From Candidatus Poribacteria bacterium (GTDB taxonomy: Bacteria > Poribacteria > WGA-4E > JAJDTR01), in contig OZ240209.1 in the NCBI GenBank assembly GCA_965197465.1, forward strand, positions 4,288,958 to 4,352,957: DNA of 64,000 bases, written 5' to 3'. How positions within the stretch are numbered: the first letter of the stretch is position 1; each line of letters begins with the position of its first letter. The notes under the pieces were generated by a model. That model saw nothing but the letters and a program-made list of their open reading frames with translations. It searched no databases and was not told the origin of the DNA. The translations under genes were made by a program, and so were the position numbers. Shown piece after piece: positions 3,527-61,499 of this stretch.

Positions 3527-3805
3527 AAGCCACAGAGGTGAAACACTCATCAGCGCGGCTAAGTTTTTTGTAGGGTGCGCACCGCGATCAAACGAGTGAA
3601 TAACGAGTGCGATAGGGATCGCACCAGCCTTTGAAAGCGTCAGTGGCCATCTTCGATTATCAAATCTCTGATGGAATCTTTAAGGTGTATCGTAGGAAAA
3701 AGAATGAAAACAATCCTCCTCAAATGACCAAAAATGGCATTGACTCCTATTCTTCAAACAGGCGCTAAGCCAAAGAGGTGAAACACCCATCCGCGCGGGT
3801 AGGTT
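3527..3805 (+). repeat. Imperfect ~39-bp direct repeat pair (AAGCCAnAGAGGTGAAACACnCATCnGCGCGG) 240 bp apart
   Basis: Copies at ~3527-3565 and ~3767-3805. Confidence 0.7.
3586..3620 (+). mobile_element. Mini-element inserted into a GTAGGGTGCGCAC-type REP
   Basis: Filled site GTAGGGTGCGCACCGC[35 nt]GCACCA versus empty site at 25621-25642 (minus strand). Confidence 0.85.
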
Positions 3806-3926
3806 GAAGTTGCATCAGAAGGTCCGCGATATTCGCCCGTTGCACCCAGTGTGCACAATTGCGCTCGCATCGAAGGATATGCTATCATTCCGATGAACCC
3901 ATGTCTCAATGTGAGGTATATAATTT

Positions 3927-4862
3927 ATGAAAATCACTGAAAGGCTCCCCTACCTTGCCGTTATCGCGATCGCGTGGTTTGTGCGTTGCTTGCCCAAGCG
4001 ATTGGCGATGGCTTTCGGCAGCGCAATCGGCAGATTTCTGTATCGGGCGCTCGACAAACGCCGTAAGATTGCTTTAGAGAACCTGAAAATTGCATTTGGA
4101 AATGCGTTGCCAGACCGGGAACATAGAGAGATATGTCTACAAAGTTTCATCAACATCGGCAAAACAGCAATCGAATTTCTGCGTTTCCCGAAATTGACTC
4201 GCGGGAATATTTGGCAAGAGGTAAGTGTTACGGGCACGGAACACCTCGTACAATCGCTAGATGAAGGACGAGGCGCAGTTGTCTTTCTTCCACATTTCGG
4301 TAATTGGGAACTTCTGGCATTGGTTTACGGTGTTATCATCCCGGATAAGGCAAAAGCACTTGCTTTTCCCCTCAAAAACAGATGGCTTAACGCATTAGTT
4401 TGGAAGTATAGGGAGCATCTGAGCTTGAAGTTAATTCCTCGCCAGCAAGCTATTAGGGAAACTTTCCGAGCCTTGAAAACCAACTACGCCGTCGGTTTCT
4501 TCGCCGACCAGGATGCCGGTCGGGAAGGAGTTTTCGTGGATTTCTTCGGACGACCTGCCTCAGCCGTCCGGGGCCCCGTCACCTTTGCACTTAAAACAGG
4601 TGCGCCACTACATTTCTCTCTAGATATCCGCCAGTCTGATGACCGACACCATGTGCATATCTCGCCACGGATTGATCTTGATCGGTCCGGCAATTTCGAG
4701 CAGGATGTTCAGACGAATACCGCCCGCTTGATGAATTATCTTGAGGAATTCATCCGTCAATATCCGGCTCAATGGCTTTGGCTGCACAATCGGTGGAAAA
4801 CTCAGCCAGATTCGGATTGGCAAACCAAACGCCGACAGCGCGACTTCCTAGAAAGGCGTTGA
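3927..4862 (+). CDS. Lipid A biosynthesis / lysophospholipid acyltransferase (LpxL/HtrB family)
   Basis: HFGNWE, DQD and PAQWLWLHNRWKT motifs. Confidence 0.9.
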   Translation: MKITERLPYLAVIAIAWFVRCLPKRLAMAFGSAIGRFLYRALDKRRKIALENLKIAFGNALPDREHREICLQSFINIGKTAIEFLRFPKLTRGNIWQEVSVTGTEHLVQSLDEGRGAVVFLPHFGNWELLALVYGVIIPDKAKALAFPLKNRWLNALVWKYREHLSLKLIPRQQAIRETFRALKTNYAVGFFADQDAGREGVFVDFFGRPASAVRGPVTFALKTGAPLHFSLDIRQSDDRHHVHISPRIDLDRSGNFEQDVQTNTARLMNYLEEFIRQYPAQWLWLHNRWKTQPDSDWQTKRRQRDFLERR

Positions 4863-4874
4863 CGGCTATTTCAG

Positions 4875-4903
4875 TTGCGAGGCATAGCAGGTCATGTTAT
4901 AAT
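4875..4903 (+). promoter_or_regulatory. sigma70-type promoter upstream of ctpA
   Basis: TTGCGA-17 nt-TATAAT with extended TG. Confidence 0.6.
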
Positions 4904-5066
4904 TAGGTTCTCAACTGCGTGTTTTACTGTCTGATTTGAAGAATATCCGTTCAGAATTCATTCAATATTCGATGTCCAGTTACTAATCTCTTCCCATCAA
5001 GAGGGAGAACTTACCTTGAGCAATATCTCAAGATAAATCTCGCTATCACAATACGAAGGAGCTACC

Positions 5067-6539
5067 ATGATTTATCCCAGTAGGAAACACGTTTTACCTA
5101 TCATTTTCTTGACAACTATTGTGGTAGTATCGCTGCAATTTGTGCCCGTGGCTGGAAAAGATGCGTTAAGCAATCGAGACAGACGCATCACCAGTCCGAT
5201 GTTTTACAAGGCCATTGTGGAGGCGGTAAAAAAGACCGATGAATATTACTATCTGGAAATAAATCGAAAAAAGATGTATGAGGGCGCCATTAAAGGCGCT
5301 CTTGCCGCACTAGGAGACCCCTACACCTTCTATTTGCCTGCGAGAGAGCAAAAGCGGGAAAAGGAAGATCTTTACCATAGCAAATTTGGAGGGCTAGGAA
5401 TAAAAATCTACGTTGATAAAGGTTTAATAAAAATTTCTCGACCTTTGCCCGATACTCCCGCCATCAAAGCAGGATTACAGGCTGGAGATTATATTGTCAA
5501 AGTCGGCGATGTTTCAATTGATATTGGCGGGCCCGCGGGACAGACACTTGCCGATGTAATTGATATTTTGCGGGGACGTGTAGGAACGAAGGTTACAATC
5601 ACTGTACGACGCCGGGGGCTACAGGAATTATTTGATGTAACCCTCACACGAGAGGAAATTTTGCCCCAAAGCGTCAAAAAGGAAATGCTGGAAAACCAGA
5701 TTGGTTATATTCAAATAGAGAGTTTTACCGGAAGAACTAACGCCGAGTTCAAGAAGGCTATAACGGAGTTGCAAGAAGAAGAAATGACGGCACTCATTCT
5801 AGACTTGAGAAACAATGCAGGTGGTCTGCTTGAGCAAGCCAATTATGTCGTAGATGCCTTCATTTCCGAGGGGCCCATCGTCTCGACAAGAGGACGGGGA
5901 CATAGATTCAATCAAGAATACCCGGCACACGGCGGTCTGCTCTGTCCCCCCGACATTCCACTCGTGGTGATGGTTAACGAGTGGAGCGCCAGCGGTTCCG
6001 AGATTGTTGCCGGGGCAATCAAAGATACTAAACGCGGCGTCTTGGTTGGCACTGAAACTTTTGGGAAAGGGCTTGTCCAACAACGCTTCCCATTGAATAA
6101 TGGTGGTGGTTCTATTTCACTAACGATCTCGGAATATTTCACACCAAGTGGAGCTAGAATTCACAATAAAAGTATCGCGCCACATGTGTTCGTTGAGAAC
6201 TGGACAACTGGAGTAGTACATGTTGATAGGTCTATCAAGAATTTCGTAGAGAAGTGGATTGAAGCGGAGGAGAAAAGCGCGGGCAAAACCCTTACAGAGG
6301 CCGACTTTATGGCGCTTGAGGCAGAACTTCCCGATCTGATTACATCCCTAGAGCAAGAATTTATGACAAACCTGCAAAAATCAATTCGGCTCAAAGCGCG
6401 TAGGTTTTTTGACGTCAACCTTGGAATCTACAAACTTGTAGATTTGCCAAATGACAAACAGTTGGTGGAGGCAATCCGAATACTCAACGAGGGTGAAGTC
6501 GAAGGGATTCTAGCGGCAGCCCCAACGGCAAATCTGTAA
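5067..6539 (+). CDS. ctpA: Carboxy-terminal processing protease (S41A) with PDZ domain
   Basis: FGGLGI PDZ loop, DLRNNAGG, SASGSEI and TFGKG motifs; N-terminal signal. Confidence 0.92.
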   Translation: MIYPSRKHVLPIIFLTTIVVVSLQFVPVAGKDALSNRDRRITSPMFYKAIVEAVKKTDEYYYLEINRKKMYEGAIKGALAALGDPYTFYLPAREQKREKEDLYHSKFGGLGIKIYVDKGLIKISRPLPDTPAIKAGLQAGDYIVKVGDVSIDIGGPAGQTLADVIDILRGRVGTKVTITVRRRGLQELFDVTLTREEILPQSVKKEMLENQIGYIQIESFTGRTNAEFKKAITELQEEEMTALILDLRNNAGGLLEQANYVVDAFISEGPIVSTRGRGHRFNQEYPAHGGLLCPPDIPLVVMVNEWSASGSEIVAGAIKDTKRGVLVGTETFGKGLVQQRFPLNNGGGSISLTISEYFTPSGARIHNKSIAPHVFVENWTTGVVHVDRSIKNFVEKWIEAEEKSAGKTLTEADFMALEAELPDLITSLEQEFMTNLQKSIRLKARRFFDVNLGIYKLVDLPNDKQLVEAIRILNEGEVEGILAAAPTANL

Positions 6540-25511: not shown

Positions 25512-25561
25512 GGGATCTCTATCAGGATTTACTATCGCAGTCGCTATCCGCTCGCTCGATC
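25512..25561 (-). mobile_element. Two nested mini-element copies within a REP remnant
   Basis: Minus strand GATCGAGCGAGCGGATAGCGACTGCGATAGTAAATCCT-GATAGAGATCCC-TCTCCGAATCG. Confidence 0.75.
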
Positions 25562-25656
25562 TCCGGTGGAGCGAAGGCTGGAGAAGTCGCGAACAGGAGA
25601 TCGCTCCTACAGAGAAGGGCTGGTGCGCAGTGCGCACCCTACAACTGCTACTATCC

Positions 25657-28118: not shown

Positions 28119-28156
28119 GATCAAGCGAGTGAACACGGAGCGCGATAGAAATTCCC
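28119..28156 (+). mobile_element. Mini-element inserted in a GTAGGAGGG-type REP
   Basis: GATCAAGCGAGTGAACACGGAGCGCGATAGAAATTCCC. Confidence 0.8.
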
Positions 28157-31157: not shown

Positions 31158-31533
31158 TAGGATTTGCGCAGTTGAACACCAAATGGTTTGTAGGAGCGAT
31201 CTCCGAATCGCGACCTATCGTCGTGAATTGGAATGCCTTCGTGATGTCGGGAATCGGAGAAGATCTCTATCGATCAACTGAGTGGATAGCGAAGACGATA
31301 GAATATCCTACTCCCTATTCACTCGGTTGATCCTCGTTGTCCACTCGGTTGATCGGTCACTATCTGTTCCCTTGATCTCGCTTGATTTATCCGCTCAGTT
31401 AATCGGTTTCGGGAGACTCGTGTTGGGTTTCACTCAGGTTGCGGAGGTGTAAATCAAGACGAGAATGGCAGATGTAATTCAGATTTTCGGGTTTTTCGGG
31501 AGTTTCCGCTCAACCCAACCTACATAAGATCTA
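31158..31533. mobile_element. Degenerate TAGGACTTACGCA-type MITE carrying REPs and a stack of mini-elements
   Basis: TAGGATTTGCGCAGTTGAAC left end, TACATAAGATCTA degenerate right end; similar left ends at 34096, 61265 and 63244. Confidence 0.55.
31259..31405. mobile_element. Stack of about six full or partial mini-element copies in both orientations
   Basis: Forward copy 31272-31309 inside a reverse copy, followed by four more reverse 5' halves. Confidence 0.8.
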
Positions 31534-33982: not shown

Positions 33983-34301
33983 TCAGCCGGACACTTGGAA
34001 TCGACACCTCTTCGTGTTATCGCGGCAATTTCCGTTCAGATGTGCCGATTCCAAGTTTCCGTATGAAACAGTTTTCCAATTGTTCAGGATTGTGTCAGGA
34101 CATACGCAGTTGAACACCCGGTAGGAGCGATCTCCGAATCGCGACTTTAATTCACCCCAGTGACACATTGACATTATAGAGAAATGGATTGGTTGCCGGA
34201 AGTACGCAAGTCATACCACTTTTGGGCAAATAGCGCAAGAACCGCCGGACAAATTGCCATGCGGTTGAATCCGCATGAATCTGCTCCACCAATAGGAAAA
34301 A

Positions 34302-39549: not shown

Positions 39550-39671
39550 GGATAAGCGAATAGATCAAATGAGCGATCAACCGAACGAATAGTGAGGGCG
39601 ATAGTAGATCCCATAGTGAATGCGATAGCGATCCCTGACAGCGAGTGTGATAGAACTTTAATGTAACTCCC
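39550..39671 (+). mobile_element. Three-level nest of mini-elements
   Basis: GATCAAATGAGC[GATCAACCGAACGAATAGTGAGGGCGATAGTAGATCCC]ATAGTGAATGCGATAGCGATCCC within a third degenerate copy. Confidence 0.85.
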
Positions 39672-41076: not shown

Positions 41077-41199
41077 GGGAGTTCTATTACACGGGATTTA
41101 CTATCGCTCTCCCTAGGGGATCTCTATCAGGATCTACTATCGCCTTCCTTATCCAGTCAGTTGATCGTTCCCTATTCGGTCACTTGATCTACTTCGATC
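41077..41199 (-). mobile_element. Three- to four-level nest of mini-elements in a GGGCGG..CCGCCC REP
   Basis: Three 5' halves followed by four 3' GATAG-ATCCC-like tails on the minus strand. Confidence 0.8.
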
Positions 41200-41338: not shown

Positions 41339-41737
41339 GTAACTGTTTAGTCTAACGGTTTTTCGAGTGAAGCGGGGCAATCGCTTATGATTATAGCGTG
41401 AATTGGCCAACGTATGTCAGCCTTATTTTTGCAAAGACATTCCCAGCGCTATTATCTACTTTACAAGCTATCGTAGGAATTCACATTCCGCTCCTCTGGA
41501 GCGGGAGAGACAGACACTCCTGGGCTACAAACATGGGGGATCTCTATCGTACGGGATTTACTATCGCACTCACTATTCGTTCGCTTGATCGTTATTCACT
41601 CGCTTGATCCCCGCTGGAGTGCAAGACACGGTCAACACTAAACTATATCAGTCGTTTGATCCCGCGCTGGGGCTTTCTGCAGGAAGTGGTGGGCGGTGCC
41701 CACCCTACAAATGTACAAAGTCGGGCTAAACAGTTAC
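41339..41737. mobile_element. MITE, TIR GTAACTGTTTAG, 8-bp TSD TTTTCTTT, with nested REPs and mini-elements
   Basis: TTTTCTTT at 41331-41338 and 41738-41745 flanks inverted termini. Confidence 0.88.
41537..41609 (-). mobile_element. Mini-element cleanly nested in another copy
   Basis: GATCAAGCGAGTGAATAAC[GATCAAGCGAACGAATAGTGAGTGCGATAGTAAATCCC]GTACGATAGAGATCCC. Confidence 0.88.
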
Positions 41738-45503: not shown

Positions 45504-45523
45504 ACCACCCTCCATTTTTAGCC

Positions 45524-49530: not shown

Positions 49531-49583
49531 GATTGAAAACCTCCTTAAGCTCTAAATGTTAGGATTTTGATTAAAGAAAATAG

Positions 49584-49766: not shown

Positions 49767-49773
49767 GAAAATA

Positions 49774-50191: not shown

Positions 50192-52450
50192 CTATTTGCC
50201 GACCAACATTTTGCGCGTCGCAGTAAAATCACCCGCAGTCAGCGTGCAGAAATAGACGCCATTCGCCACCGTCTCGCCCTGCTGATTCCTGCCGTCCCAA
50301 TATGATGCGCGACCTCGATCAGTGTAGAATCCGGCTGATTGATACCCTAAATCAAATTGTCGCACCAACACACCTGCCGCATCATAGATGGTGAGCGTCG
50401 CATCGGCGTCGTCCGCGAGATGGAACGGTATCCACGTCTCCGGATTGAAGGGGTTCGGGTAATTTGGAAGAAGTGCAGTGGTTGTCGGAGTTAAAGGCGT
50501 GACCGAAGGTGATAGCCCCAACGATTGCCTCGTCCCATCAACGATTCCCATTTGTTTAATGTCACCCCATGTTGTGCCAAATCTCGTTCCCCACAGCAGT
50601 ATTGTGCCGTCGTTACTCCCGCTGACAAGCGTGAAACCATCGGGCGAGAACGCTAAGGAGGTGACAGTTTCCGTATGCCCCTCAAGGGCGTACAACTCCG
50701 CGCTGGTATGCGCATTCCACAATCGAATCGTCGTGTCGCCGCTCCCACCGGCAAGTGTGAAATCATTGGGTGAGAACGCCACGGAAGTAATTTGGTCTGT
50801 GTGCCGTCCGATTAGAAACCACAATCGCCCGGTGCGAGAATCCCACAGACGAATACTCCCGTCCTCATAGCCCCCGCCGCTGGCAAGTATGGAACCGTCG
50901 GTCGAGAACGCTACGGAACGCACCTCACTCATCTGCCTCTCTATGCCATATGGTGTTCCATCCTTGGTATCCCACAGACGAACTGCCGCGCTAGTGCTTC
51001 CGCCCGCAAGTGTAGACCCGTCCGGAGAAAACGCGATCGACAGAATCTCGTCGCCGTAATGCCGATGCTTCCACAAGTGTTCCCCGGTGTGTGCATTCCA
51101 CAGACGAATCGTCTCGTCGCTGCTCCCGCTTGCAAGCGTGGAACCATCGAGCGAAAATGCCAGGCACAAAATGTCATGGGTATGCCTTTCAAGCGTCTGC
51201 AGGTGTTCGCCGCTGTGCGCATCCCACAGGCGAATCGTGGCATCGCCGCCTCCGCTGGCAAGCGTGGAACCGTCTGGAGAAAACGCAACGCAATAGATGT
51301 CTTCCGTATGTCCCTCCAGCGTCTTCAGGAGTTCTCCGGTGTGCGCGTCCCACAAACGAATCGACGTGTCACCGTTCACACTGGCAACTGTAAACCCATT
51401 GGGTGAGAACGCTACGAAACGCACCTCGCGCGTATCGCCTTTAATCGTCCCCCGAAGTTTGCCGGTAGGCACGTCCCACAATTGAATCGTGTTGTCCCTA
51501 CTCGCACTTGCAATCGTTAGGTCGTCGGGTGAAAACGTCACCGAATTAACGGTATTAACGGTATGGTGATGCTCGTCGATTGTGCGCAAACCTTCCCGCT
51601 TATGGACATCCCACAACCGAATGGTGTTGTCTTCGCTCGTACTGGCGAGTGTTGTCCCGTCGGAGGAGAACGCAATGGAACCAACTGCCCATTGCCCCCC
51701 AAGAGCGCCCAAATAGTTTCCAGAGCGCACATCCCACAAACGAACCCTTTTCAAGTCGCCGCTGGCGAGCATTCTTCCGTCAGGTGAAAATGCGACCGAT
51801 AAGACGCCGCCGAAGTGTCCCTCAAAAGTACCCAGGTGCTCGCCCGTGTGGGGGTTCCACAAACGAACCGTGTTGTCGTTCCATTTGCTTCCACTGGCAA
51901 GCGTAACGCCGTTGGGTGAGAACACCAAGGCGAGAACCGCGCTCGTATGTCCTTGAAGGCGGCGCAAACGCTCTCCGGTGCGAACATCCCACAGAGGAAT
52001 TTCCCTGCCGTCTCCTGCAGCAAGCGTCGAACCATCGGACGAAAACGCGACCGAAGTTATATGATTCGTGTGCCCCTCGAAGATCTTTAAGGGTTTCCCG
52101 GTGCGAACATCCCACGTACGAACGGTGTTGTCTCCGTCAGCTCCGCAACTGGCAAGCATAGCGCCATCCGGCGAGAAATCTATGCACCGTACGGGGCGCG
52201 TATGCCCACTCAGCAAGTTGACTTCGGCGCCTGTGGTTGCATCGTAGAGCCAGGTCCCGATGCTACTCGCGACTGCGAGCAGGGATCCATCAGGCGAATA
52301 TGCGACATCGCCGGATATCCAGCCCTTGCCGAGTCTTACTTTTGCGCCATCGGGCAGTCCCCAGCGGACATGGTCTTGGGCAAAGCTAGTCTGTAAAATC
52401 AGTGTATAAACGAATAAAATGCTGAGTTTGAAAAACCGCGATTTTCTCAT
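50192..52450 (-). CDS. Secreted WD40-repeat protein with TTWG linker and FlgD-Ig tail
   Basis: WD40 repeats, GTTWGDIKQ, LLPNYPNPFNPETWIPF. Confidence 0.93.
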   Translation of the reverse strand: MRKSRFFKLSILFVYTLILQTSFAQDHVRWGLPDGAKVRLGKGWISGDVAYSPDGSLLAVASSIGTWLYDATTGAEVNLLSGHTRPVRCIDFSPDGAMLASCGADGDNTVRTWDVRTGKPLKIFEGHTNHITSVAFSSDGSTLAAGDGREIPLWDVRTGERLRRLQGHTSAVLALVFSPNGVTLASGSKWNDNTVRLWNPHTGEHLGTFEGHFGGVLSVAFSPDGRMLASGDLKRVRLWDVRSGNYLGALGGQWAVGSIAFSSDGTTLASTSEDNTIRLWDVHKREGLRTIDEHHHTVNTVNSVTFSPDDLTIASASRDNTIQLWDVPTGKLRGTIKGDTREVRFVAFSPNGFTVASVNGDTSIRLWDAHTGELLKTLEGHTEDIYCVAFSPDGSTLASGGGDATIRLWDAHSGEHLQTLERHTHDILCLAFSLDGSTLASGSSDETIRLWNAHTGEHLWKHRHYGDEILSIAFSPDGSTLAGGSTSAAVRLWDTKDGTPYGIERQMSEVRSVAFSTDGSILASGGGYEDGSIRLWDSRTGRLWFLIGRHTDQITSVAFSPNDFTLAGGSGDTTIRLWNAHTSAELYALEGHTETVTSLAFSPDGFTLVSGSNDGTILLWGTRFGTTWGDIKQMGIVDGTRQSLGLSPSVTPLTPTTTALLPNYPNPFNPETWIPFHLADDADATLTIYDAAGVLVRQFDLGYQSAGFYTDRGRASYWDGRNQQGETVANGVYFCTLTAGDFTATRKMLVGK

Positions 52451-52517
52451 TGATTGATTCTCCTTGCTGCGAATTCGGCCCCTGGGGTTACGGCACACGG
52501 CGTGTGCCTACTACCTT

Positions 52518-54821
52518 CTACTTGCTCACCAACATTTTCCGTGTGGCGGTGAAATCTCCTGCGGTCAGCGTGCAGAAGTAGACGCCATTCACTACTGTCT
52601 CTCCCTGCTGATTTTGTCCGTCCCAATATGCCGCGTGACCTCGCTCGGTGTAGAATCCCGCTGGTTGATATCCCAAATCAAATTGCCGCACCAACGCACC
52701 TTTCCCGTCATGGATCGTGAGCGTGACATCGGCGTCGCCCGCGAGATGGTACGGCATCCACGTCTCCGGGTTGAACGGATTCGGATAGTTGGGCAGAAGC
52801 GCCGTTTCTGTAGGCGTTAGGGGTGCGGTTGAAGTTGAGGGTTCCGGGAATTGCCTCATCCCATCGGTAACCGACGCTCGCTTGGTGTTGCTCCAAGTCG
52901 TCGCACGCATCAGGTCCCAGAGTAAAATTGTGCCATCGCCGCTCCCACTCGCAAGCGTGAGTCCATCCGGAGAAAATGCTACAGAACTTACCCAATCGGC
53001 ATGTCCTTCAAATGTCCGCAGGTGTTCCCCGGTGCCAGAATTCCATAGACGGACTGTGTCGTCCCAACTCCCGCTCGCAAGCGATACGCCGTCGGGAGAA
53101 AACGCTACGGACCCCACCCCGCTCGTATGTCCTTCAATTGTCCGCAGACGTTCACCAGTGATCGCATCCCATATACGAATCGTGTCGTCCGAACCCCCGC
53201 TCGCAAGCGTAAGCCCATCGGGAGAAAACGCCACGGACGTGACAGAGTATTGGTGCCCCACTAGAGCGTGCGTGGCATTCGCCGTACGGAGATCCCAGAG
53301 ACGAACTGTCGCGTCGTTCCATCCGCCGCCGCTCGCAAGCATAGAACCATCGGGCGTAAACGCTATGGTAGAGACAGTGCCCACATGGCCCGTTAGAGTT
53401 TCCAGCCTCTCACCGGTGCGGACATTCCATAAATGAACCTTGCTGCCATACCCACTGGCAAGCAGTCTCCCGTTGGGTGAAATCGCCACGGAATCGACAT
53501 CTCCCCATCCCAATCCAATCCTCTCCCAAAGGATATGTAAACTTTCGCCGGTGTGCGCATCCCACAAACGAGCTGTAAGGTCTGAACTGCCGCCGCTAGC
53601 AAGCGTGGAGCCTTGCGGCGAGAACGCCAAGGACACGACTCGGGTCTCATGTCCCTTCAGGGCAAGGAAGTTTCTTCCGGTATGCACATCCCACAGAAGA
53701 ATCGGATCGTCAATATATCCTGTGCCACTCGCAAGCGTAATGCCATCGGGAGAATATGCGATGGAATTCACAGGCGTCGTGTGTTCTACGATGGCCAGAA
53801 TATCTTCGCCAGTGTGCACATCCCATAACCACACCGTTCCGTCCCGACTACCCCCGCCCGCAATTGTCAACCCATCCGGCGAAAACACTATGAAATCAGC
53901 AGAACCAGTATGCCCATACAATGCCTTTAGATGTTCCCCGGTGTGGACATCCCACAATCGTACAGGGTCGTTTGAGCCTCGACCTCCACTCGCAAGCGTA
54001 AGACCATCGGGCGAGAACGATATGGAACTCACACCGACCGCTCGTTCTTCAAACGGACGCAGGAGTTCTCCGGTGCTGACACCCCATAGAAGAATTGTGG
54101 TGTCCACCCAACTGTAGCTGCCACTGGCAAGCATTGAGCCATCGGGCGAGAACGCTACCTCACTGACTCCACGGACCTGCCCCTTGAGCGTGTGCAGGAG
54201 CTCACCGGTGTGGACATGCCACAGACGAATTGTGCTCACCTCCCAACCGCCTCCGCTCGCAAGTGTGGAACCATCGGGCGAAAACTGAACAACTTCGACC
54301 GACTGCGAATGACCGGAAAGTGCTCGCAAGAACTCCCCGGTGCGAATATCCCACAATCGAACCGTCTTGTCGCCGCTCCCGCTGGCGAGCGTAAGTCCAT
54401 CAGGCGAGAACACCACAGATTCGACCGAGCGCGAATGTCCCTCAAGTGTATGCAGATGCGTCCCGGTGCGCACATCCCACAGACGGACTGTTTTGTCTCT
54501 CGACCCTCCGCCGCTAGCGAGCGTAAGTCCATCAGGCGAGAACGCTACGGCATACACCCTATCTGAATGCCCGGTGAGAAGATTGACTTCGGCGCCAGTT
54601 TTCGCGTCATAGAGCCATACGCCGATGATACTTGGGACAGCGAGCAGGGCTCTGTCCGGGGAATAGGCAATCTTGCCGGTTATCTCACCCTTGCCGAGCC
54701 GCATCTTGGCGCCATCGGGCAACCCCCACCGGGTATAGTCTTGGGCATAGCTAGTCTGCAAAGACAATGACAATGCGGTACCGAACATGACGCTGAGTAT
54801 GAAAAACCGAGATCTTCTCAT
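52518..54821 (-). CDS. Secreted WD40-repeat protein with TTW linker and FlgD-Ig tail
   Basis: WD40 repeats, ATTWSNTKR, LLPNYPNPFNPETW. Confidence 0.93.
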   Translation of the reverse strand: MRRSRFFILSVMFGTALSLSLQTSYAQDYTRWGLPDGAKMRLGKGEITGKIAYSPDRALLAVPSIIGVWLYDAKTGAEVNLLTGHSDRVYAVAFSPDGLTLASGGGSRDKTVRLWDVRTGTHLHTLEGHSRSVESVVFSPDGLTLASGSGDKTVRLWDIRTGEFLRALSGHSQSVEVVQFSPDGSTLASGGGWEVSTIRLWHVHTGELLHTLKGQVRGVSEVAFSPDGSMLASGSYSWVDTTILLWGVSTGELLRPFEERAVGVSSISFSPDGLTLASGGRGSNDPVRLWDVHTGEHLKALYGHTGSADFIVFSPDGLTIAGGGSRDGTVWLWDVHTGEDILAIVEHTTPVNSIAYSPDGITLASGTGYIDDPILLWDVHTGRNFLALKGHETRVVSLAFSPQGSTLASGGSSDLTARLWDAHTGESLHILWERIGLGWGDVDSVAISPNGRLLASGYGSKVHLWNVRTGERLETLTGHVGTVSTIAFTPDGSMLASGGGWNDATVRLWDLRTANATHALVGHQYSVTSVAFSPDGLTLASGGSDDTIRIWDAITGERLRTIEGHTSGVGSVAFSPDGVSLASGSWDDTVRLWNSGTGEHLRTFEGHADWVSSVAFSPDGLTLASGSGDGTILLWDLMRATTWSNTKRASVTDGMRQFPEPSTSTAPLTPTETALLPNYPNPFNPETWMPYHLAGDADVTLTIHDGKGALVRQFDLGYQPAGFYTERGHAAYWDGQNQQGETVVNGVYFCTLTAGDFTATRKMLVSK

Positions 54822-54851
54822 CGGATAATTTTCTTCCGGCAAACGTAAATT

Positions 54852-57140
54852 CTATTTCCTGATTAACATTTTCCGCGTCGTACTAAAACCGCCTGCCCTT
54901 AGGGTGCAGAAATAGACGCCATTTGCTACCGTCTCGCCCTGTTGATTGCGTCCGTCCCAATACGCCGCCCGCTCGCGGCTCCGGTACGCACCAGCCGGCT
55001 GGTATCCCACTGCCAGTGTCCAAACCGCTCGCCCGTTCATATCATATATCGCCAGCGACACCTCAGCGGGCTTCTCCAACTGGTACGGTATCCAGGTCTC
55101 GGGATTGAACGGGTTCGGGTAGTTCGGCAGGAGCGCCGTTGGTGCTAAGGGTGCGGCTGAAGGTGAGAGTGCCGGCAATTGCCTCGTCAAATCGGTAACC
55201 GACACTCGCTTGGCGTCGCCCCAAGTCGTTGCACGCATCAGGTCCCACAGTAGAACCGTGCCGTCTGTGCTCGCGCTAGCCAAGGTTGAGCCATCGGGCG
55301 AGAAAGCCACGCTGGTGACTGACAACCAATTCCAGTTGAAGGTCTTCCTGATCTCCCCGGTGTGTACATCCCGCAATCGAATCACGGCGTCTCGGCCCCC
55401 GCTGGCAAGCATGCCCTCACGGCGCGAAAACGCAATAGCATTGAGCCCACCGGATTCGTCACCGAGGATTCGCAGACTTTTCCCGGAGTGTACATCCCAC
55501 AATCGGATGGTATCGTCTCGACTCCCACTGGCAAGCATGGAACCGTCCGACAGGAACACTACGGAAATGACTTCGTCTGTGTGTCCCTCCAGCATCCCCA
55601 AGTTTTCTCCTGTACGTACGTCCCACAAACGAATCGTGTCGTCTAGACTACCACTGGCAAGTGTGGATCCGTCCGGAGAAAACACTACGGACGAAACCGC
55701 GTTTACGTGTCGACCGAGGGTATGTATTCCTTTTCCCGTGCCCGAATCCCACAACCGAACTGTGTTGTCCCAACCACCACTAGCGACCGTGCGCCCGTCG
55801 GGTGAGAACGCCACCGAATACACCTCGCCCGCATGCGCCTCAAGCGTATGTAGCCGTTCTCCGGAGCGGATATCCCATAACCGAACCGTTCCGTCGTATT
55901 CGCCGCCGCCGCTGGAAAGCGTATACCCATCGGGCGAAAATGCCAAACAACTCACTCCGTGCGTATGTCCCTCGAGTGTTTGCTTGTGCTCCCAAGTTCG
56001 TGCATCCCACACACGAATCGTACCGTAAACGCCGCTGTGTGCAAAGAGATGGCCATCAAGCGAAAAAGCAATAGCGCCTTCCGTGTACGGATATCCCCCA
56101 CGATATCCCTCGATGGTATGCTTGTGTTCCCGAATTCGCATATCCCAAAAACGAATCGTACCGTCCCAACTTGCGCTGACAAGCGTGAGCCCGTCGGGTG
56201 AGATTGCTACAGAAGTCACCCCATCCGTATGTCCGGTTAGCGTCTTCAGGTGTTCTCCCGTATGCCCATCCCACAATCGTATGGTCTCGTCCCGACCTCC
56301 GCTGCAGAGTATGAGTCCATCCGGGGAGAACGCTACCGAGGTTACTTCTTTCACATGCCCCTCAAGCGTATGCAGGTGTTCACCCGTACGCGCATCCCAC
56401 AAACGCACTGCGTTGTCATACCAACCGCCAGCGCTGGCAAGCGTTGAACTGTCAGGCGAGAACGCTAACCAATTGGATTCATCCTTATGCCCCTCAAGCG
56501 TATGCAGGTGCTCACCCGTGCGGACATCCCACAAGCGAATTGTCTCCTCCCGACCGTCTGCGCTGGCTAGCATGGAACCATCCGGGGAGAACGCCACCGC
56601 GTTCACCGAAATTTTGTGACCGTGAAACGAGCGCAGGTGCTCACCCGTACGCACATCCCACAGACTGATTGAGTCGTCCCGCTCTGAGCCGATACGATTT
56701 CCGCTAGCGAGGGTAGAGCCGTCGGGGGAAAACGCCAGAGCAGTTATATAAAGCGCATGACCCTTGAGCGTTCGCCGGTGCTCACCCGTATAGGCGTCCC
56801 ACAAACGAATTGTAGGGTCGTCCCTGCCGCGGCCGCCGCTAGCAAGCGTGGCGCCGTCCGGAGAAAACGCGACGGAACCGACCCGAGCTGTATGCCCTGT
56901 GAGCAGGTTGAGTTCGGTGCCGGTCCCGGCATCATAAATCCAAATACCGGCATTGCTCGCGATCGCGATCCGAGTCCCGTCGGGTGAATAGGAAATATTG
57001 CTGGTTATTTCACCCTTCCCGATGCGCGTTTTCGCGCCTTTGGGCAATCCCCATCGTGTATAATCTTGGGCGAAACTGCGCGGCACAAACAGAGCAACAG
57101 CGAGCAATAGGTAAAGTTTGAATATCCATTTACTCCTCAT
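54852..57140 (-). CDS. Secreted WD40-repeat protein with TTWG linker and FlgD-Ig tail
   Basis: WD40 repeats, ATTWGDAKR, LLPNYPNPFNPETWIPYQL. Confidence 0.93.
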   Translation of the reverse strand: MRSKWIFKLYLLLAVALFVPRSFAQDYTRWGLPKGAKTRIGKGEITSNISYSPDGTRIAIASNAGIWIYDAGTGTELNLLTGHTARVGSVAFSPDGATLASGGRGRDDPTIRLWDAYTGEHRRTLKGHALYITALAFSPDGSTLASGNRIGSERDDSISLWDVRTGEHLRSFHGHKISVNAVAFSPDGSMLASADGREETIRLWDVRTGEHLHTLEGHKDESNWLAFSPDSSTLASAGGWYDNAVRLWDARTGEHLHTLEGHVKEVTSVAFSPDGLILCSGGRDETIRLWDGHTGEHLKTLTGHTDGVTSVAISPDGLTLVSASWDGTIRFWDMRIREHKHTIEGYRGGYPYTEGAIAFSLDGHLFAHSGVYGTIRVWDARTWEHKQTLEGHTHGVSCLAFSPDGYTLSSGGGEYDGTVRLWDIRSGERLHTLEAHAGEVYSVAFSPDGRTVASGGWDNTVRLWDSGTGKGIHTLGRHVNAVSSVVFSPDGSTLASGSLDDTIRLWDVRTGENLGMLEGHTDEVISVVFLSDGSMLASGSRDDTIRLWDVHSGKSLRILGDESGGLNAIAFSRREGMLASGGRDAVIRLRDVHTGEIRKTFNWNWLSVTSVAFSPDGSTLASASTDGTVLLWDLMRATTWGDAKRVSVTDLTRQLPALSPSAAPLAPTALLPNYPNPFNPETWIPYQLEKPAEVSLAIYDMNGRAVWTLAVGYQPAGAYRSRERAAYWDGRNQQGETVANGVYFCTLRAGGFSTTRKMLIRK

Positions 57141-57216
57141 TCGATTGTTCTCCTTGCGATGAGCATCTTTTCTCACAGCTTGCTCATTTTTTGCGCCGTG
57201 CAGACAGCATTATCGC

Positions 57217-59493
57217 TTATTTCACAAGATTCATCCGGCGGGTGTTATGAGATTCGCCCGCCTGCAACGAATAGAAATATAATCCGCTCGAAACGGTCTC
57301 GCCCGCATCATTCCGCCCATCCCAATAGGCGGCTTGGGACCGAGAAAGATAATCGCCCGCCGGCTTAGCTCCGAGATTTAGCGTTCGCACCTGACGCCCC
57401 GACGCATCGTGAATCCGGATGTTTACGTTGGCTAACTCGCTCAGTCGATACGGTATCCAGGTTTCCGGGTTGAACGGGTTGGGAAAGTTCGGCAGCAACG
57501 CTGTTTTCTTGACCTGTCCCAAGAGCGTCGGTCTAGGGAGAAGGCGTGCATTGACATCCCAGATCTGCGGCGACGGGTATGTGAGACGTGTGAGGAGCAC
57601 TGATCCATCCTGAGCCACATCCCAATATTCAGGCACGAATGGGTGTTCAAGCGGTTGATTGGCACGCCAATTCCAAATCTGCAAACCATCCTTTCCGTTC
57701 AAGAACAGGTAACGCCCGTCTGCGCTGAAATGTGCCGGGCCTCTGCCGTCTATCCGAAACACCTGTTCCGGCCCTTGTTCCCCGAGTCGCCATCCCATAA
57801 CGGAGGAGGACGACGCAAAAACCAGAATCGGGGGCGTCGCATGTGGATGAAAAACGAGGTTTGCACCGTAGGTATAATGCATTTGCATAGGTGGGATCCA
57901 TGCATAGCGATAACTGTACCCGTGTTCGCCCTGTTCCCACAGGTGCAATCGAGTATGCTGATCCGATGCGGCAAGACAATGGTCGTCTTCACTGAATGCA
58001 ATGAAAAATCCCGGGTTGATTCCTAGCAACTCGCGCCGGTGCGGTTGATCGACGTCTACTACAATTATTGCGTTATTCCGATTAGCGCCCGTCGCAATGC
58101 GGTTTCCGTGGTTACTAAACGTAAGCCCCAGCGCCGCCCTAGCGTCGGGAAGATACGTCTGCAGCTCACCGGTATGTATATCCCGGACTTCCGTGCCGTC
58201 TGCGTACAACCCGACCGCGAATTGCCGACTATCCGCAGAGATGGCTAACGTCTGACGATAGTTCTGCATACCCTCGAATACAATTTGCCGCAACGAGCCC
58301 GATGGCACATCCCATATCTTAATCAACGTGTTATTTACCTCCACGAGCGATCTACCGTCCGGGCTGAGCTTACTCCGACCACCGCCGCCGTAATCTGCCC
58401 ATAGTCTTAACTGTCGATTCTGTTTCATGTCCCAAAGAACGGCAACTTGACCGTGATACTGAAGAATCGCAAGGCTTTCGTCGGGAGATACTGAGACGTG
58501 CCTGAGTGCGGTCGGTTCCGCACGGATTTCGTTGATTGACGCGCCTGTCTCAACGTCCCAGACGCGCAGTCGGTCATTGAACGTATTCCTATATGCCGGA
58601 TACCGCGTTCTGGTCCCCACGTACAGCCGTCGGCTATCTCGGCTGAAAAAGAGCTCGAACACCTCGCCCGCACGGCGAGATTCCGAGTCTCCATTCCGCA
58701 ACGTTCGCACCAGTTGGCGGGTCTCGGCGTTCCACAGGTAGACCTTCGTCGACTCCACCTCGGTCGTGGCAATCCATTGTCCATCGGGGCTGTAGGCAAC
58801 TTTGGTAACCCAGCCATCATGACCTTCCAAATGCCCGGCAAGCTTTCGTGTCTCAAGATCCCAAATTTCGGCATCCGGACGTTTCGATCCAACCACGAGA
58901 AATCGAGCGTCGGGACTGAAGGCTATGGAGAAGACAAATGGCGCATGGTCGCTACAGTTCGAACTGCTCCAGCCACTGCCAGATCGACGATAACATGCAT
59001 GGATAGATCTCCTCTTATCTTCCAGCCGACCAACCCATTCTCCCGTCTCCCAATCCAGCAGCAAAATCTCGTCTGACCCGCCATTTACCGCAACAAGCGG
59101 CTGTGTCCTACCGAATGCAACCAGAAATGGATAATCCAACACTCCCCCCGACCATGATCGGACAGATTCAAATTCCCATTCGCCGAGTTTCTCCTGTCCG
59201 TTAATGTCCCAGAGTTCGACCGTGTCTCTTCTTCTAATAACAAGCTGCTTGCCATCCGGACTGACAATCACCGACCCTAAGAATTCCGAGCTTTCGGCGA
59301 AGTTTGCAAGCACTACGTCGTTGTCCGGATCCACAATTTCAATATGCTTTGGCATAACGCGAATCATATTTCCGTCAGGAAGGAAAGTCAGTTGACGCAG
59401 TGACCCTTTCCCAATCGATCCAACAGGTTCAATCGCCAGCGCTTCGCCGAAGATGAGCAGCCACGAAAAGAATACGACTACAAATGTTTTCAC
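57217..59493 (-). CDS. Divergent secreted WD40/beta-propeller protein with FlgD-Ig tail (operon leader)
   Basis: GTG start, signal ALA-IE, degenerate WD blades, LLPNFPNPFNPETWIPY. Confidence 0.88.
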   Translation of the reverse strand: MKTFVVVFFSWLLIFGEALAIEPVGSIGKGSLRQLTFLPDGNMIRVMPKHIEIVDPDNDVVLANFAESSEFLGSVIVSPDGKQLVIRRRDTVELWDINGQEKLGEWEFESVRSWSGGVLDYPFLVAFGRTQPLVAVNGGSDEILLLDWETGEWVGRLEDKRRSIHACYRRSGSGWSSSNCSDHAPFVFSIAFSPDARFLVVGSKRPDAEIWDLETRKLAGHLEGHDGWVTKVAYSPDGQWIATTEVESTKVYLWNAETRQLVRTLRNGDSESRRAGEVFELFFSRDSRRLYVGTRTRYPAYRNTFNDRLRVWDVETGASINEIRAEPTALRHVSVSPDESLAILQYHGQVAVLWDMKQNRQLRLWADYGGGGRSKLSPDGRSLVEVNNTLIKIWDVPSGSLRQIVFEGMQNYRQTLAISADSRQFAVGLYADGTEVRDIHTGELQTYLPDARAALGLTFSNHGNRIATGANRNNAIIVVDVDQPHRRELLGINPGFFIAFSEDDHCLAASDQHTRLHLWEQGEHGYSYRYAWIPPMQMHYTYGANLVFHPHATPPILVFASSSSVMGWRLGEQGPEQVFRIDGRGPAHFSADGRYLFLNGKDGLQIWNWRANQPLEHPFVPEYWDVAQDGSVLLTRLTYPSPQIWDVNARLLPRPTLLGQVKKTALLPNFPNPFNPETWIPYRLSELANVNIRIHDASGRQVRTLNLGAKPAGDYLSRSQAAYWDGRNDAGETVSSGLYFYSLQAGESHNTRRMNLVK

Positions 59494-59535
59494 TTTTATG
59501 CCCTTCAATGCTGTACATGGTTTTCGTAACACATA

Positions 59536-59660
59536 TGCAAATGCTATGCCAAGCGTGTATATGACGGAAAAACCTGTCACTACACGGATTTCTAGCGCTA
59601 TGCGGCGTACTCGACGGGTTTAAACTGTTCAGTTTCTGGACAGGATTGTTCAATAATGGG
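59536..59660 (-). promoter_or_regulatory. sigma54 (-24/-12) promoter with tandem activator sites
   Basis: TTGGCATAGCATTTGCA at 59552-59536; TGTTC-N7-GGACA at 59626 and TGTTC at 59647. Confidence 0.8.
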
Positions 59661-60172: not shown

Positions 60173-60280
60173 AAGATTGCAAAACCCATGCAGCGGAAAA
60201 CAACCGCTGTGATTATCTTTGGTGCAAGCATGATCGAGGGATTTTAGATGCGTTTCCCCTGAGAAGAACAGGCCAAATAC

Positions 60281-60308
60281 TTGACTTCTTAAGATTCGAT
60301 GCTATAAT
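60281..60308 (+). promoter_or_regulatory. sigma70-type promoter for rlmB
   Basis: TTGACT-16 nt-TATAAT with extended TG. Confidence 0.65.
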
Positions 60309-60449
60309 GGCTCAAGTGGTTACCTGTCGGTAATCGTTGGATTAGAATTCCGCTTGACTTGAATAGACGTACACAAGCCCAGCCCGCGAGCGGTGATTGA
60401 CTGAATTTAACTCCCGTTCTCTTGTTCCAAGAAACACGCACGCAGTCTA

Positions 60450-61220
60450 ATGGATAAACAGCATACAACCTCAAACCCATATGCAATCGTCGGACGGAAT
60501 TCCGTGTTGGAACTCTTGCGTGGAGGTGAGCGTGAGATTGAGCTAATCCAGATTGCGCAGGGACGAGACCACCCACGGCTGCGTCAAATCACCTCGCTCG
60601 CTCAGAAAAAGGGAATCCGCTGTGATTTTGTTCCCCGCATTGAACTAGATCGACTTGAGTCAACAATCCCTCATCAGGGCGTTATCGCCATTGCCAGCCC
60701 CAAGAAATACTTGGAAATCGGAACGCTGCTTGAGCAAATCCAGGGCGAACGGGGAGACCGCCCTCCCTTGATTGTAATGTTGGATGGGGTTCAAGATCCG
60801 CACAACCTCGGCGCAGTCATGCGAACAGCCGACGCTGCGGGCGTGGATGGGATTGTGATTCCAAAGAATAGAGCGGTGGGGGTAACGACAACCGTCCATA
60901 AAGCATCGGCGGGCAGCGCGGAATATATCCCGGTTGCCCAAGTCACGAATCTCGCGCGAACTATCGAGCGTATAAAAGACTCCGGACTTTGGGTTATCGG
61001 AGCTGAGCAGGAAGCGCCGCAAATTTACACAAAAGCAGATTTCAGCGTGCCGCTTTGTCTCGTCTTGGGCAATGAAGCGGAGGGGCTGCGAAGGCTCGTG
61101 AGGGAAAAATGCGATTCGCTGGTTCGTTTACCGATGCACGGTCATTTGCCGTCTTTGAACGTGTCGGTAGCGGCGGGAGTGCTACTATACGAGGTTCTTC
61201 GGCAAAGGACGCAAGCGTGA
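60450..61220 (+). CDS. rlmB: 23S rRNA (G2251-2'-O)-methyltransferase
   Basis: HQGVIA, LDGVQDPHNLGA, LGNEAEG and SLNVSVA SPOUT motifs. Confidence 0.93.
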   Translation: MDKQHTTSNPYAIVGRNSVLELLRGGEREIELIQIAQGRDHPRLRQITSLAQKKGIRCDFVPRIELDRLESTIPHQGVIAIASPKKYLEIGTLLEQIQGERGDRPPLIVMLDGVQDPHNLGAVMRTADAAGVDGIVIPKNRAVGVTTTVHKASAGSAEYIPVAQVTNLARTIERIKDSGLWVIGAEQEAPQIYTKADFSVPLCLVLGNEAEGLRRLVREKCDSLVRLPMHGHLPSLNVSVAAGVLLYEVLRQRTQA

Positions 61221-61294
61221 ATCCTCACGGCGGTTAGAGTTATTGCAACCAAGAATTATACACATAGGACTTACACAGTCCAGTCTGTAGGAGC

Positions 61295-61378
61295 GATCAA
61301 CTGAGCGGACAGCGAAGGCGATAGAGATCCCTCTCCGAGTCGATCAAGCGACTGAACAAGGAGCGCGATAGTAATCCA
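61295..61378 (+). mobile_element. Two separate mini-element insertions in one GTAGGAGCGATCTCC REP
   Basis: Empty REP at 31190 and 34121 reads GTAGGAGCGATCTCCGAATCGCGAC; here it is split twice by +35 nt. Confidence 0.88.
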
Positions 61379-61499
61379 TACCTGTCGGGAATCGGAATTC
61401 CCTCCTACGGGGGCGATTGGCTCTTTCCGTTTTCCCCGGTATCAGCAAATTGCTTTATTTGTCATTGCGAAATTTCTCTCAAGACCCAAGATGACCGCG

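Follow-up and report, generated by a model that had tools for sequence, protein, structure and literature searches.

The window analysed here, a stretch of 64,000 nt from Candidatus Poribacteria, contains hairpin repeats that occur both intact and split by one and the same short sequence, which raises the question of what this sequence is, whether it moves and how it is joined to its targets. The empty and filled sites described in an earlier note on this DNA (3570 versus 25621; 31190 and 34121 versus 61287-61385; and several nested copies) were all recovered as described, including a copy at 28119 that follows a G (Table 1). The inserted sequence is a non-coding element of 37-38 nt with the consensus GATCAA-NN-GA-NN-GRAYA-NN-GA-NN-GCGATAG-(N)NRATCC, and its conservation ends two bases past the final ATC. 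The exact core was matched 573 times in the genome and a reversed control pattern 0 times, and the family therefore lies far above chance; looser searches of the same genome yielded about 1,100-1,170 copies. The element is non-autonomous and, as a 37-nt hairpin of a sponge symbiont, counts among the smallest mobile DNAs on record.

Table 1. Element copies and empty host repeats; coordinates are positions in the 64,000-nt window.
Feature	Position	Strand	Remarks
Degenerate copy (GATTAAG...)	154..190	+	
Copy in GCCCCAG.G-type hairpin repeat, HP-F-like	311..347	+	
Filled REP-D: GTAGGGTGCGCACCGC / element 3586-3620 / GCACCAGCC	3570..3629	+	Element in 3' arm; net +35; target loss not required
Copy behind GCTCCACCGGA hairpin, then solo 3' remnant of older copy	25524..25561	-	
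Empty REP-D GTAGGGTGCGCACTGCGCACCA	25621..25642	-	
Copy 9 nt behind GTAG (GTAGGAGGG)	28119..28155	+	Preceding base G
Empty REP-C GTAGGAGCGATCTCCGAATCGCGAC	31190..31214	+	
Copy in opposite-strand copy at CTATC/GC	31272..31308	+	Host pieces about 31259-31271 and 31309-31332
Empty REP-C GTAGGAGCGATCTCCGAATCGCGAC	34121..34145	+	Empty in related species G008 too
Nested stack; host cut after position 12 by copy 39575-39612	39563..39635	+	Host resumes at position 15; GR lost; +36
Nested pair; host cut after 23 by copy about 41129-41166	41117..41189	-	Host resumes GATAG; GC lost
Nested pair; host cut after 19 by copy 41553-41590	41535..41609	-	Host resumes at position 22; GA lost
REP-C doublet, copies 61295-61331 and 61342-61376	61287..61410	+	Target GA overwritten by copy 1; in G008, copy 1 in mirror position, copy 2 absent
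Copy behind CTATC of opposite-strand copy	63302..63339	-	

Only one strand of the element folds; the product is a mini-hairpin, and the compensatory changes in it are strong. The outer pairs are A2-T28, T3-A27 and C4-G26; the inner part consists of 7-8 paired with 22-23, tandem G.A and 11-12 paired with 18-19, closed by the loop GRAYA, so that helices of 2-3 bp are interrupted by G.A pairs and there is no long perfect stem. Among 1,167 copies, Watson-Crick pairs were observed versus expected at 733/325, 978/471, 964/405 and 842/500, and G.T pairs (296 and 194) greatly outnumbered A.C (17 and 20). In a set of 131 distinct copies from other genomes, compared with 500 shuffles and with slid controls, 98.2% of the cells were paired versus 80.7% in the shuffles (0/500 matched the observed value), and the covariation score was 0.582 versus 0.211 shuffled and at most 0.099 for the slid controls. 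Such a strongly conserved fold, the location of 84% of the copies (979/1,167) outside crude ORFs and a modest sense bias with respect to flanking genes (384 versus 262) could also be expected of a protein- or RNA-level signal that is under selection at intergenic sites and not primarily mobile. We consider this very improbable, given that copies nest in each other and split REPs, are present or absent at orthologous sites, are patchily distributed (17 of 151 genomes sampled across the phylum) and have no match to an Rfam family within the window. The database matches listed for the element were to Candidatus Poribacteria records only.

The sites of 778 copies were assigned to host sequences: i) 155 sit 8-9 nt behind a GTAG tag; ii) 55 belong to two further hairpin families, which flank IS200-like Y1 genes; and iii) 272 lie within other element copies. 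Most insertion sites are therefore hairpin-forming repeats, as the earlier note had proposed. The main hosts are GTAG-tagged REPs with adjoining RAYT-like genes, which the copy enters in the 5' arm, in 104 units at a distance of 8-9 nt behind the tag, and with a fixed orientation (170 units with a copy in their own orientation, 4 with the opposite only). Self-insertion is confined to a few positions: the host is cut after position 10, 12, 17, 18, 19 or 23 in 229 of 230 cases, and insertion into an opposite-strand copy at CTATC/GC was found 41 times genome-wide. At tandem junctions the tail runs into TCAA (39 times) and never into GATCAA (0 times). The other 296 sites are outside recognised repeats; 278 distinct non-repeat sites were counted, and pairing flanks of at least 6 bp were present at 12 of 185 clean non-repeat sites, versus 2.3% in controls.

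We compared 132 single-filled with 657 empty units from seven repeat families, and added 152 self-insertions. The target motif is R-S^G, with just two informative positions before the junction: R at -1 (650/778) and S at 0 (647/778). Insertion had been thought to follow C and to be directed to CpG steps, but the 778 copies are preceded by C (344), G (303), A (88) or T (43), G^G is nearly as frequent as C^G, and hence there is no CpG rule. The target G coincides with the first G of the element in 7/7 repeat families and 6/6 self-insertion classes; the identity often extends to GA and sometimes to GATC, the four bases that REP-C shares with the 5' end of the element. Beyond the shared G another 0-3 target bases are lost, and as a result the site grows by 33-36 nt. 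In the REP hairpins the loss is reproducible (GG, GA, GCA, GCG(G), GCAT or GGTT) and the net gain is +33 to +35, with +33 in the largest classes. The proposed net gain of +35/36 thus applies to self-insertions (113/152) and less so to REPs. Likewise, the replacement of two bases describes 68 of the 152 resolved self-insertions; the others lost 3 nt (41), 1 nt (20), 4 nt (9), 0 nt (5) or at least 6 nt (9), the REPs vary, and a pure insertion of 34-35 nt would also explain site 3570 and two orthologous cases.

Comparison of filled with empty sites revealed no target-site duplication (TSD) in any class, and the element has no terminal inverted repeat (TIR) beyond the GATC at each end; the flanking bases do not pair with the tail. 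Both observations bear out what had been noted from the window alone, and together with the one-strand orientation and the single folding strand they set the element apart from DDE transposition. A MITE of a DDE transposon would share with it the small size and the intergenic location only, and has next to no probability: target bases are lost instead of duplicated, and neither a TIR of about 10 bp or more nor a TSD of fixed length is present, so that the junctions refute it.

The comparison of orthologous sites that the earlier note had called for produced five clean presence/absence differences with respect to the related species G008, in both directions and some of them in unique, otherwise identical flanks, which shows that the element moves. 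Excision scars were absent (0) from the eight repeat forms searched, as were copies lacking the bases that insertions remove (0); the absence of scars points to copy-and-paste, that is, to copies being added and not moved. A few ancient insertions, with no mobility of their own, might instead have been spread passively by amplification of REPs/REPINs, with larger repeats, by slippage and by gene conversion between repeats with and without a copy. Nine copies indeed occupy the identical place of a longer repeat that lacks the element in G008, many filled REP-A units have common outer flanks, one tandem array contains at least 12 units of 35 nt, and 6/28 and 12/28 unique-flank sites are common to G008. 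Co-amplification from one event, the finding by which the earlier note would have had its reading overturned, therefore holds for the longer repeat, but we judge it improbable as a general account in view of the 379 stem variants, the reuse of single junctions by 7, 7 and 12 variants (with 19, 11 and 17 different outer contexts, respectively), the distinct non-repeat sites, the six fixed self-insertion positions and the orthologous differences in unique flanks, which indicate strain-level gain.

As to how copies are added, we lean, tentatively and at somewhat less than even chance, towards an element that folds on one strand and is joined into hairpin DNA by a trans-acting single-strand nuclease/ligase. 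The folding strand would be released as a single-stranded copy, and a sequence- and structure-specific enzyme would ligate this copy into hairpin DNA that is itself single-stranded, with one S^G nick specificity for both the 5' end of the donor and the target. The preferred candidate would be an HUH Y1 enzyme of the RAYT/IS200 kind, acting replicatively. In line with this, Y1 HUH genes occur in 13/13 element-rich genomes, and in G000 the Y1 loci are flanked by their own REP/hairpin families, which receive element insertions; all 9 of the 9 loci inspected there have a copy at most about 430 nt from the Pfam match. Against it, Y1 genes are also common in element-free genera (7/7 genomes in g6, 8/10 in g3), and neither of two Y1 subfamilies follows the distribution of the element (in the element-free g6, L224-type in 7/7 and L225-type in 6/7); no cognate Y1 gene was found among the Y1 loci of G000 or in the two subfamilies. 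The motif has 2-3 informative bases compared with the 4-5-nt site of IS200/IS605, the sites outside recognised repeats seldom have pairing flanks, and no orientation switch of copies was seen along the chromosome, although its GC skew shows no clear origin. We also know of no HUH transposition, as by IS200/IS605, that results in overwriting of target bases.

The net gain of 33-36 nt, the occasionally missing terminal CC and the truncations with junction identity look more like copying than like clean transesterification. A possible, if doubtful, alternative to the nuclease/ligase is primed copying, similar to target-primed reverse transcription (TPRT) or template switching: a nicked or stalled 3' end in hairpin DNA would anneal to a discrete single-stranded template (RNA or ssDNA) by a match of 1-4 bases (G, GA, GATC), a polymerase would copy to the template end, and the new strand would rejoin the target a few bases downstream. 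This would agree with the shared 5' bases in all seven families and six self-insertion classes (four in REP-C), with the small, site-class-dependent target loss (0-4 nt), with the occasional lack of CC at the 3' end, with the absence of scars, and with 5'-truncated copies that begin at an identity between element and target flank (GC/GATAG 3 times, GCGA/ATAG once, AC/GAGT once). Yet the junctions are reproducible inside each site class, the large REP classes have no 3'-junction identity, and the association between flank bases and element variant is only weak (MI 0.138 versus 0.091 shuffled; 9/1000), which speaks against pairing of donor flanks. In a search with the RVT_1 profile (E<=0.001), 6/9 same-genus and 2/4 g4 carrier genomes had matches; G005, G006, G009, G012 and G021 (completeness 88-96%) had none at this threshold, which a very divergent enzyme might escape. 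The same-genus matches are weak, and the G000 copy that was inspected belongs to the AbiA defence type, so this search revealed no reverse transcriptase common to all carriers of the genus and g4. Neither the HUH nor the TPRT enzyme suggested earlier was thus borne out, and the Y1 and RVT_1 surveys retrieved no enzyme tied to the element. That the element is a gene-less, minimal 'patch-writing' entity, of which a single-stranded template of ~37 nt is copied at hairpin nicks while 1-4 target bases are overwritten, seems to us rather unlikely.

The closest published analogues are the small dispersed repeats (SDRs) of Nostocaceae cyanobacteria (SDR1-8, notably SDR5). Like the Poribacteria element, they are tiny, non-coding and scattered through the genome, and are considered mobile. 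They are reportedly 21-27 nt long, and the element is set apart from them, by the descriptions, through its 37-38 nt and its occurrence in Poribacteria. SDR5 is reported to enter the palindrome GCGATCGC at one exact point, behind its third base, which is the G of GATC (PMC4390886), and two accounts place SDRs solely in Nostocaceae (PMC5861425, PMC4390886). In Poribacteria, too, the junction falls at a G, and GATC forms the start of the element; a junction after the G of GATC was seen in REP-C only, and HIP1 (GCG^ATCGC, GCGATCGC), with just 128 occurrences in the 6.63 Mb genome, is not its target as it is for SDR5. REP/REPIN sequences with their RAYT (HUH Y1) nucleases, GTAG-tagged REPs included, are short, non-autonomous extragenic hairpins thought to move as single strands (PMC3116915, PMC3733652). 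The element is also short, hairpin-forming, extragenic and non-autonomous, but lacks the GTAG/CGTC tag and the near-perfect palindrome, both of which its host repeats have: it inserts into REPs and is not one, and no cognate Y1 gene was found for it. Hairpin-ended miniature derivatives are known in the IS200/IS605 family (PMC6006769). With this family, which recognises hairpins on single-stranded DNA, the element has in common the strand specificity and the lack of TSD and TIR. IS200/IS605 elements carry hairpins at both ends, enter 3' of a fixed 4-5-nt target from which no bases are lost, and excise precisely, whereas the Poribacteria element has one hairpin and a motif of 2-3 bases, removes 1-4 bases and shows no sign of excision. 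TPRT by non-LTR elements (R2, L1) causes small target deletions, micro-identity at junctions and replicative spread, as seen here; R2 and L1 are, however, kilobases long with their own reverse transcriptase and endonuclease, and the element has no genes and no reverse transcriptase common to its carriers in the RVT_1 search. The mobile GC clusters and double-hairpin elements of fungal mitochondria and the Rickettsia palindromic elements are likewise tiny hairpin insertions for which no machinery is known and which can nest or settle in other repeats; they differ, as compared by description, in hosts, sequences and target rules.

To our knowledge, mobile DNA below 50 nt is almost unstudied and a mechanism is known for no such element. 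The family provides an unusually clean data set for insertion chemistry: a genome has more than 1,000 copies, compensatory stem variants number in the hundreds, the empty sites are exact, the positions of self-insertion are fixed, strand choice in REPs is strict and the small target loss is reproducible. The 37-nt hairpin with its tandem G.A pairs is a ready in vitro substrate for HUH nucleases or polymerases, and primed 'patch-writing', if true, would represent a new way for DNA to move in bacteria, one that the cyanobacterial SDRs may use too. In a major group of sponge symbionts, the element shapes both the intergenic DNA and the set of REPs. Short-read assemblies break at element copies.

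The 37-38-nt hairpin element of Candidatus Poribacteria inserts strand-specifically and replicatively at R-S^G, where it overwrites the G and zero to three further bases and adds 33-36 nt without target duplication. The empty, filled and nested sites cited in the earlier note were all recovered in the window, which contains 13 copies with at most 4 mismatches to the core (the conserved 5' part of the element, up to GCGATAG).

Sites in the window and loci elsewhere in the same genome (G000); the host is the older copy that a newer copy interrupts
Feature	Position	Strand	Description
Filled unit	3570-3629		GTAGGGTGCGCACCGC + 35-nt stretch GATCAA...GGATC + GCACCAGCC
Empty counterpart	25621-25642	minus	unbroken GTAGGGTGCGCACTGCGCACCA
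Empty units	31190 and 34121		unbroken GTAGGAGCGATCTCCGAATCGCGAC
Doubly filled GTAGGAGCGATCTCCGAATCGCGAC unit	61287		copy cores 61295-61324 and 61342-61371
Nested copy	39575		older copy broken after host position 12
Nested copy	41553-41590	minus	older copy broken after host position 19
Nested copy	41130-41166	minus	older copy broken after host position 23
Copy behind CTATC of opposite-strand copy	31272
Copy preceded by G	28119
Beta-propeller gene, PD40/TolB-like	39888-40937	minus	nested element stacks on both sides
Six paralogous genes	41875-59580	minus	about 755-787 aa, full of WD40 repeats
Tandem array	G000:C1:3218315-3218717		at least 12 units, 35-nt period
L224, Y1 locus	G000:C1:3158364-3158846		IS200-like, 161 aa (L224 and L226: 151-161 aa)
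L226, Y1 locus	G000:C1:6338666-6339118		IS200-like
L183, reverse-transcriptase locus	L183:2388-4379 (G000:C1:1366387-1368393)	minus	AbiA-like, defence (DRT) kind, about 670 aa

The 126-nt periodic repeats that a repeat search returned within the window are explained by the six WD40-repeat paralogues.

We compared empty and single-filled units of the hairpin repeat families used as targets: REP-A (166 empty, 48 single-filled), REP-B (121 and 35), REP-C (155 and 7), REP-D (102 and 9), REP-E (62 and 8), HP-F (33 and 17) and HP-G (18 and 8). Losses were scored against the major empty forms, with the element start set at its G. In REP-A, GGTT between GTAGGTGC and TCTAACC was gone in 29 units (+33), and GG in the TTTCC variant (+35 in 12 units and in a further 2, +36 in 2); REP-B had lost GCAT between GTAGGCGGG and CTTGCC (22 units, +33), REP-C GA or GAT (+34 to +36), REP-D and REP-E GCA (+34), and HP-F and HP-G GCG, GCGG or GCGA (+33 or +34). 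The claimed absence of target duplication holds in every site class compared with its empty form, and the claimed replacement of two bases describes some junctions, such as the REP-A TTTCC variant, but not those where GGTT, GCAT, GCA and others disappeared. The first base lost was a G in every case throughout the seven families, and the target G is therefore indistinguishable from the element's own; in REP-C, target and element share GATC, and the event can also be written as a pure 35-nt insertion with an ambiguity of 1-2 nt. The possibility that the filled sites are co-amplified descendants of one event accounts for part of them, as nine copies lie in one longer repeat whose counterpart in the closest related species (G008) is empty. 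Single junctions, however, occurred with 7 (REP-A GGTT), 7 (REP-A GG) and 12 (REP-B) stem variants and in 19, 11 and 17 outer contexts, respectively, and the sites must therefore have been struck repeatedly.

The copy followed the orientation of the repeat unit in 170 units and had only the opposite orientation in 4, a choice of strand that is informative because the REP stem presents an identical arm sequence on both strands. In 104 units of GTAG-tagged REPs (as treated in PMC3733652) the distance between the G of the tag and the start of the copy was 8 or 9 nt. The 778 copies found genome-wide with a looser pattern were distributed over: positions 8-9 nt behind GTAG (155), same-orientation copies (230), opposite-strand copies (42, of which 41 between CTATC and GC), hairpins of the HP-F/HP-G type (55) and other sites (296). 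The preceding base was C in 344 of these copies, G in 303, A in 88 and T in 43; the counts at the 296 other sites were C 123, G 125, A 27 and T 21, with G (156) or A (93) as the second base upstream, and those for 163 copies in genomes of other Poribacteria were G 81, C 36, A 25 and T 21. These junction counts do not support the proposed insertion after C at CpG steps; they make R-S^G, rather than C^G, the target motif. The preceding base was weakly associated with the stem variant. Hairpins were weakly enriched at the non-repeat sites (12/185 versus 2.3%), in a test that is insensitive as the insertion itself shortens the left arm. Orientation with respect to neighbouring genes was mildly biased (384 versus 262, tandem spacers); as regards a replication-strand bias, the cumulative GC skew of G000 displayed no clear origin or terminus.

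Self-insertions cut the host copy after a few positions: 10 (16 cases, resuming at 15), 12 (35, resuming at 15), 17 (24, at 21), 18 (26, at 22), 19 (44, at 22) and 23 (84, at 26), with one case after 21. The predicted net gain of +35/36 nt holds for most of the 152 self-insertions resolved on both sides (+36 in 83, +35 in 30, +34 in 18, +33 in 7, other in 14), but not for REP-A GGTT and REP-B; the corresponding losses were 2 nt (68), 3 nt (41), 1 nt (20), 4 nt (9), 0 nt (5) and at least 6 nt (9). Copies with an 8-nt tail were enriched in self-insertions (109/196 versus 14/137 in REPs; 0/1000 shuffles). Genome-wide, the 8-nt-tail copies (TAAATCCC type) mostly sit within other copies and the 7-nt-tail copies mostly in REPs; this split may reflect subfamilies that differ in target habits or in age. 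Between head-to-tail neighbours the downstream unit always lacked GA (the tail was joined to TCAA 39 times and to GATCAA never), and in the tandem array the initial GA was missing in all units but the first. A census of solo halves yielded 470 5' and 328 3' parts, mostly halves of nested or mutated copies left unpaired by the patterns; no direction of synthesis follows from them.

The conserved unit reads GATCAA NN GA NN GRAYA NN GA NN GCGATAG and has a tail, (N)NRATCC, of 7 or 8 nt. Sequence is conserved as far as the second base past the last ATC (560 copies): the first base was C 468 times and T 87 times, the second C 365 times and T 176 times, and the third was variable. The exact IUPAC core matched 573 times in the 6.63-Mb genome G000 (reversed control: 0); allowing up to 3 mismatches gave 1,116 copies and the two end blocks alone 1,167, of which 188 have their midpoint within crude ORF-based genes that make up 79.5% of the genome. 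Watson-Crick pairs among the 1,167 copies far exceeded the expectation under independence of the two positions: 733 versus 325 at 7:23, 978 versus 471 at 8:22, 964 versus 405 at 11:19 and 842 versus 500 at 12:18, spread over 379 distinct stem combinations. Positions 9-10/20-21 were GA/GA in about 1,000 copies, position 13 was G and position 17 A. G.T pairs were frequent (296 at 7:23, 194 at 12:18) and A.C pairs few (17 and 20), and the fold is therefore a property of the written strand, not of its complement. In an almost gap-free alignment of 131 distinct copies from other genomes, fitted to the fold model, 98.2% of cells paired versus 80.7% in shuffles (0/500), with a covariation score of 0.582 versus 0.211 shuffled (0/500) and at most 0.099 in slid controls. 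With RNA parameters the covariation structure was the minimum-energy fold in 4/4 top and 0/4 bottom strands. It is covariation, and not folding energy, that supports the structure, because the energies were no better than those of shuffles (z from -0.8 to +0.6) and thermodynamic folding with DNA parameters yielded no stable fold. No Rfam family matched within the window.

The core was abundant both in the same genus (9/9 sampled genomes, 328-848 matches) and in one genus that belongs to another family (4/4 genomes, 113-137 matches); elsewhere in the phylum it was sporadic (2, 1, 1 and 14 matches), and the 100 genomes sampled from family f2 yielded none. Altogether 17 of the 151 genomes sampled from the phylum had a match, and in a scan of public sequences every record among the matches listed belonged to Candidatus Poribacteria.

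Comparison with G008, the closest species representative (75-95% identical in syntenic blocks; 1.2 Mb of it compared), revealed unique orthologous flanks for 28 of 250 G008 copies and for 28 G000 copies. The site was filled in both genomes for 6/28 and 12/28, and 28-42 nt shorter in the other genome for 6 and 4, respectively. Inspection of ten orthologous alignments and one paralogous pair, three orthologous ones being too diverged to read (G008 pieces 23955, 205021 and 396152, local numbering), left five clean presence/absence differences, in both directions. Three copies are restricted to G008: one occupies a REP-E 3' arm and removed no base (+35), a second occupies a REP-E 5' arm whose flanks do not differ otherwise between the genomes (at the G between GTAGGGTGG and CACTGCCC, +34), and the third lies in a GTAGGGAATAAC REP (alignment read with the family consensus). 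Two self-insertions are restricted to G000; one follows host position 12 (+36), and the other replaces four host bases (+33). At window 61287-61410, copy 2 was confined to G000 and copy 1, here in the left arm, had a near-identical, reverse-complemented counterpart in the right (mirror) arm of the G008 doublet; judged from these sequences, the doublet appears to have flipped between the two species. In other genomes of the genus the genes were about 85% identical and the spacers unalignable. None of eight predicted forms of excision scar occurred in G000, and copies deprived of the bases that self-insertions remove numbered 0 in every class, versus 573 for intact copies and 9-111 for empty forms; the element therefore spreads by addition. 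Public short-read data (four runs) consisted of short contigs ending at repeats, with joint sides of 21-36 nt that are not trustworthy. Short-read assemblies of these symbionts are broken up by the element family: within window 22000-41900, unitigs from four related samples end at element borders, e.g. 28119, 31214 and 39600.

As to mechanism, the folding strand would give rise to a single-stranded copy, which an enzyme acting in trans would join into hairpin DNA that is likewise single-stranded; an HUH-type nuclease/ligase is our favoured candidate for this enzyme. We prefer this reading tentatively, at somewhat less than even chance, because of the strict strand choice and the fixed distance to the GTAG tag, because the target hairpins belong to Y1 (HUH) genes and because donor and target share the same S^G. 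Almost as plausible, if doubtful in itself, is primed copying of a discrete template, which is suggested by the 1-4 bases in common at the 5' junction, the small losses that vary by site, the terminal CC that is missing now and then, and truncated copies with junction identity. Y1_Tnp matches were present in 34/41 relatives, including 13/13 element-rich genomes and also 8/10 and 7/7 genomes of two genera listed as lacking the element (g3 and g6). Each of the 9/9 inspected Y1 loci in G000 has an element copy within about 430 nt. The Y1 genes are flanked by hairpin families of their own: two IS200-like genes (for the IS200/IS605 family, see PMC6006769) have HP-F and HP-G next to them, and RAYT-like genes have REP-C. 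These families are targets of the element. L224 and L226 are each flanked by their own hairpin family (GCCCCAGAGGGGC... and GCTCCAGAGGAGC...); they resemble REP-RAYT units (REP/REPIN elements: PMC3116915) in combining a gene with its own flanking hairpins, but differ in lacking the GTAG tag. Neither the L224-type query (9/9 in the same genus, 2/4 in the element-rich genus g4 of the other family, 7/7 in g6) nor that of the Y1 locus L225, a RAYT-like gene of 186 aa (6/9, 3/4 and 6/7), tracked the element. RVT_1 matches (E<=0.001) were found in 6/9 same-genus genomes, where they were weak, and in 2/4 of g4; the L183 protein matched PADLOC AbiA (E=3.7e-75) and, weakly, Pfam RVT_1.

A literature search retrieved no description of this Poribacteria element. 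In the portions of PMC4390886 and PMC5861425 that concern SDRs, SDR5 is placed between bases 3 and 4 of GCGATCGC (HIP1) and none are reported outside Nostocaceae; a link to HIP1 was dropped, G000 having only 128 such sites. G000 also contains, outside the window, a second mini-element of 36 nt, composed of GATC, a hairpin that covaries and has a C[AG]TCAA loop, and a tail, TTTCCCCTCTTA. Its position in REP-D/REP-E is exactly that of the 37-38-nt element, with GCA replaced (+33), and it occurs as a pair in REP-C units.
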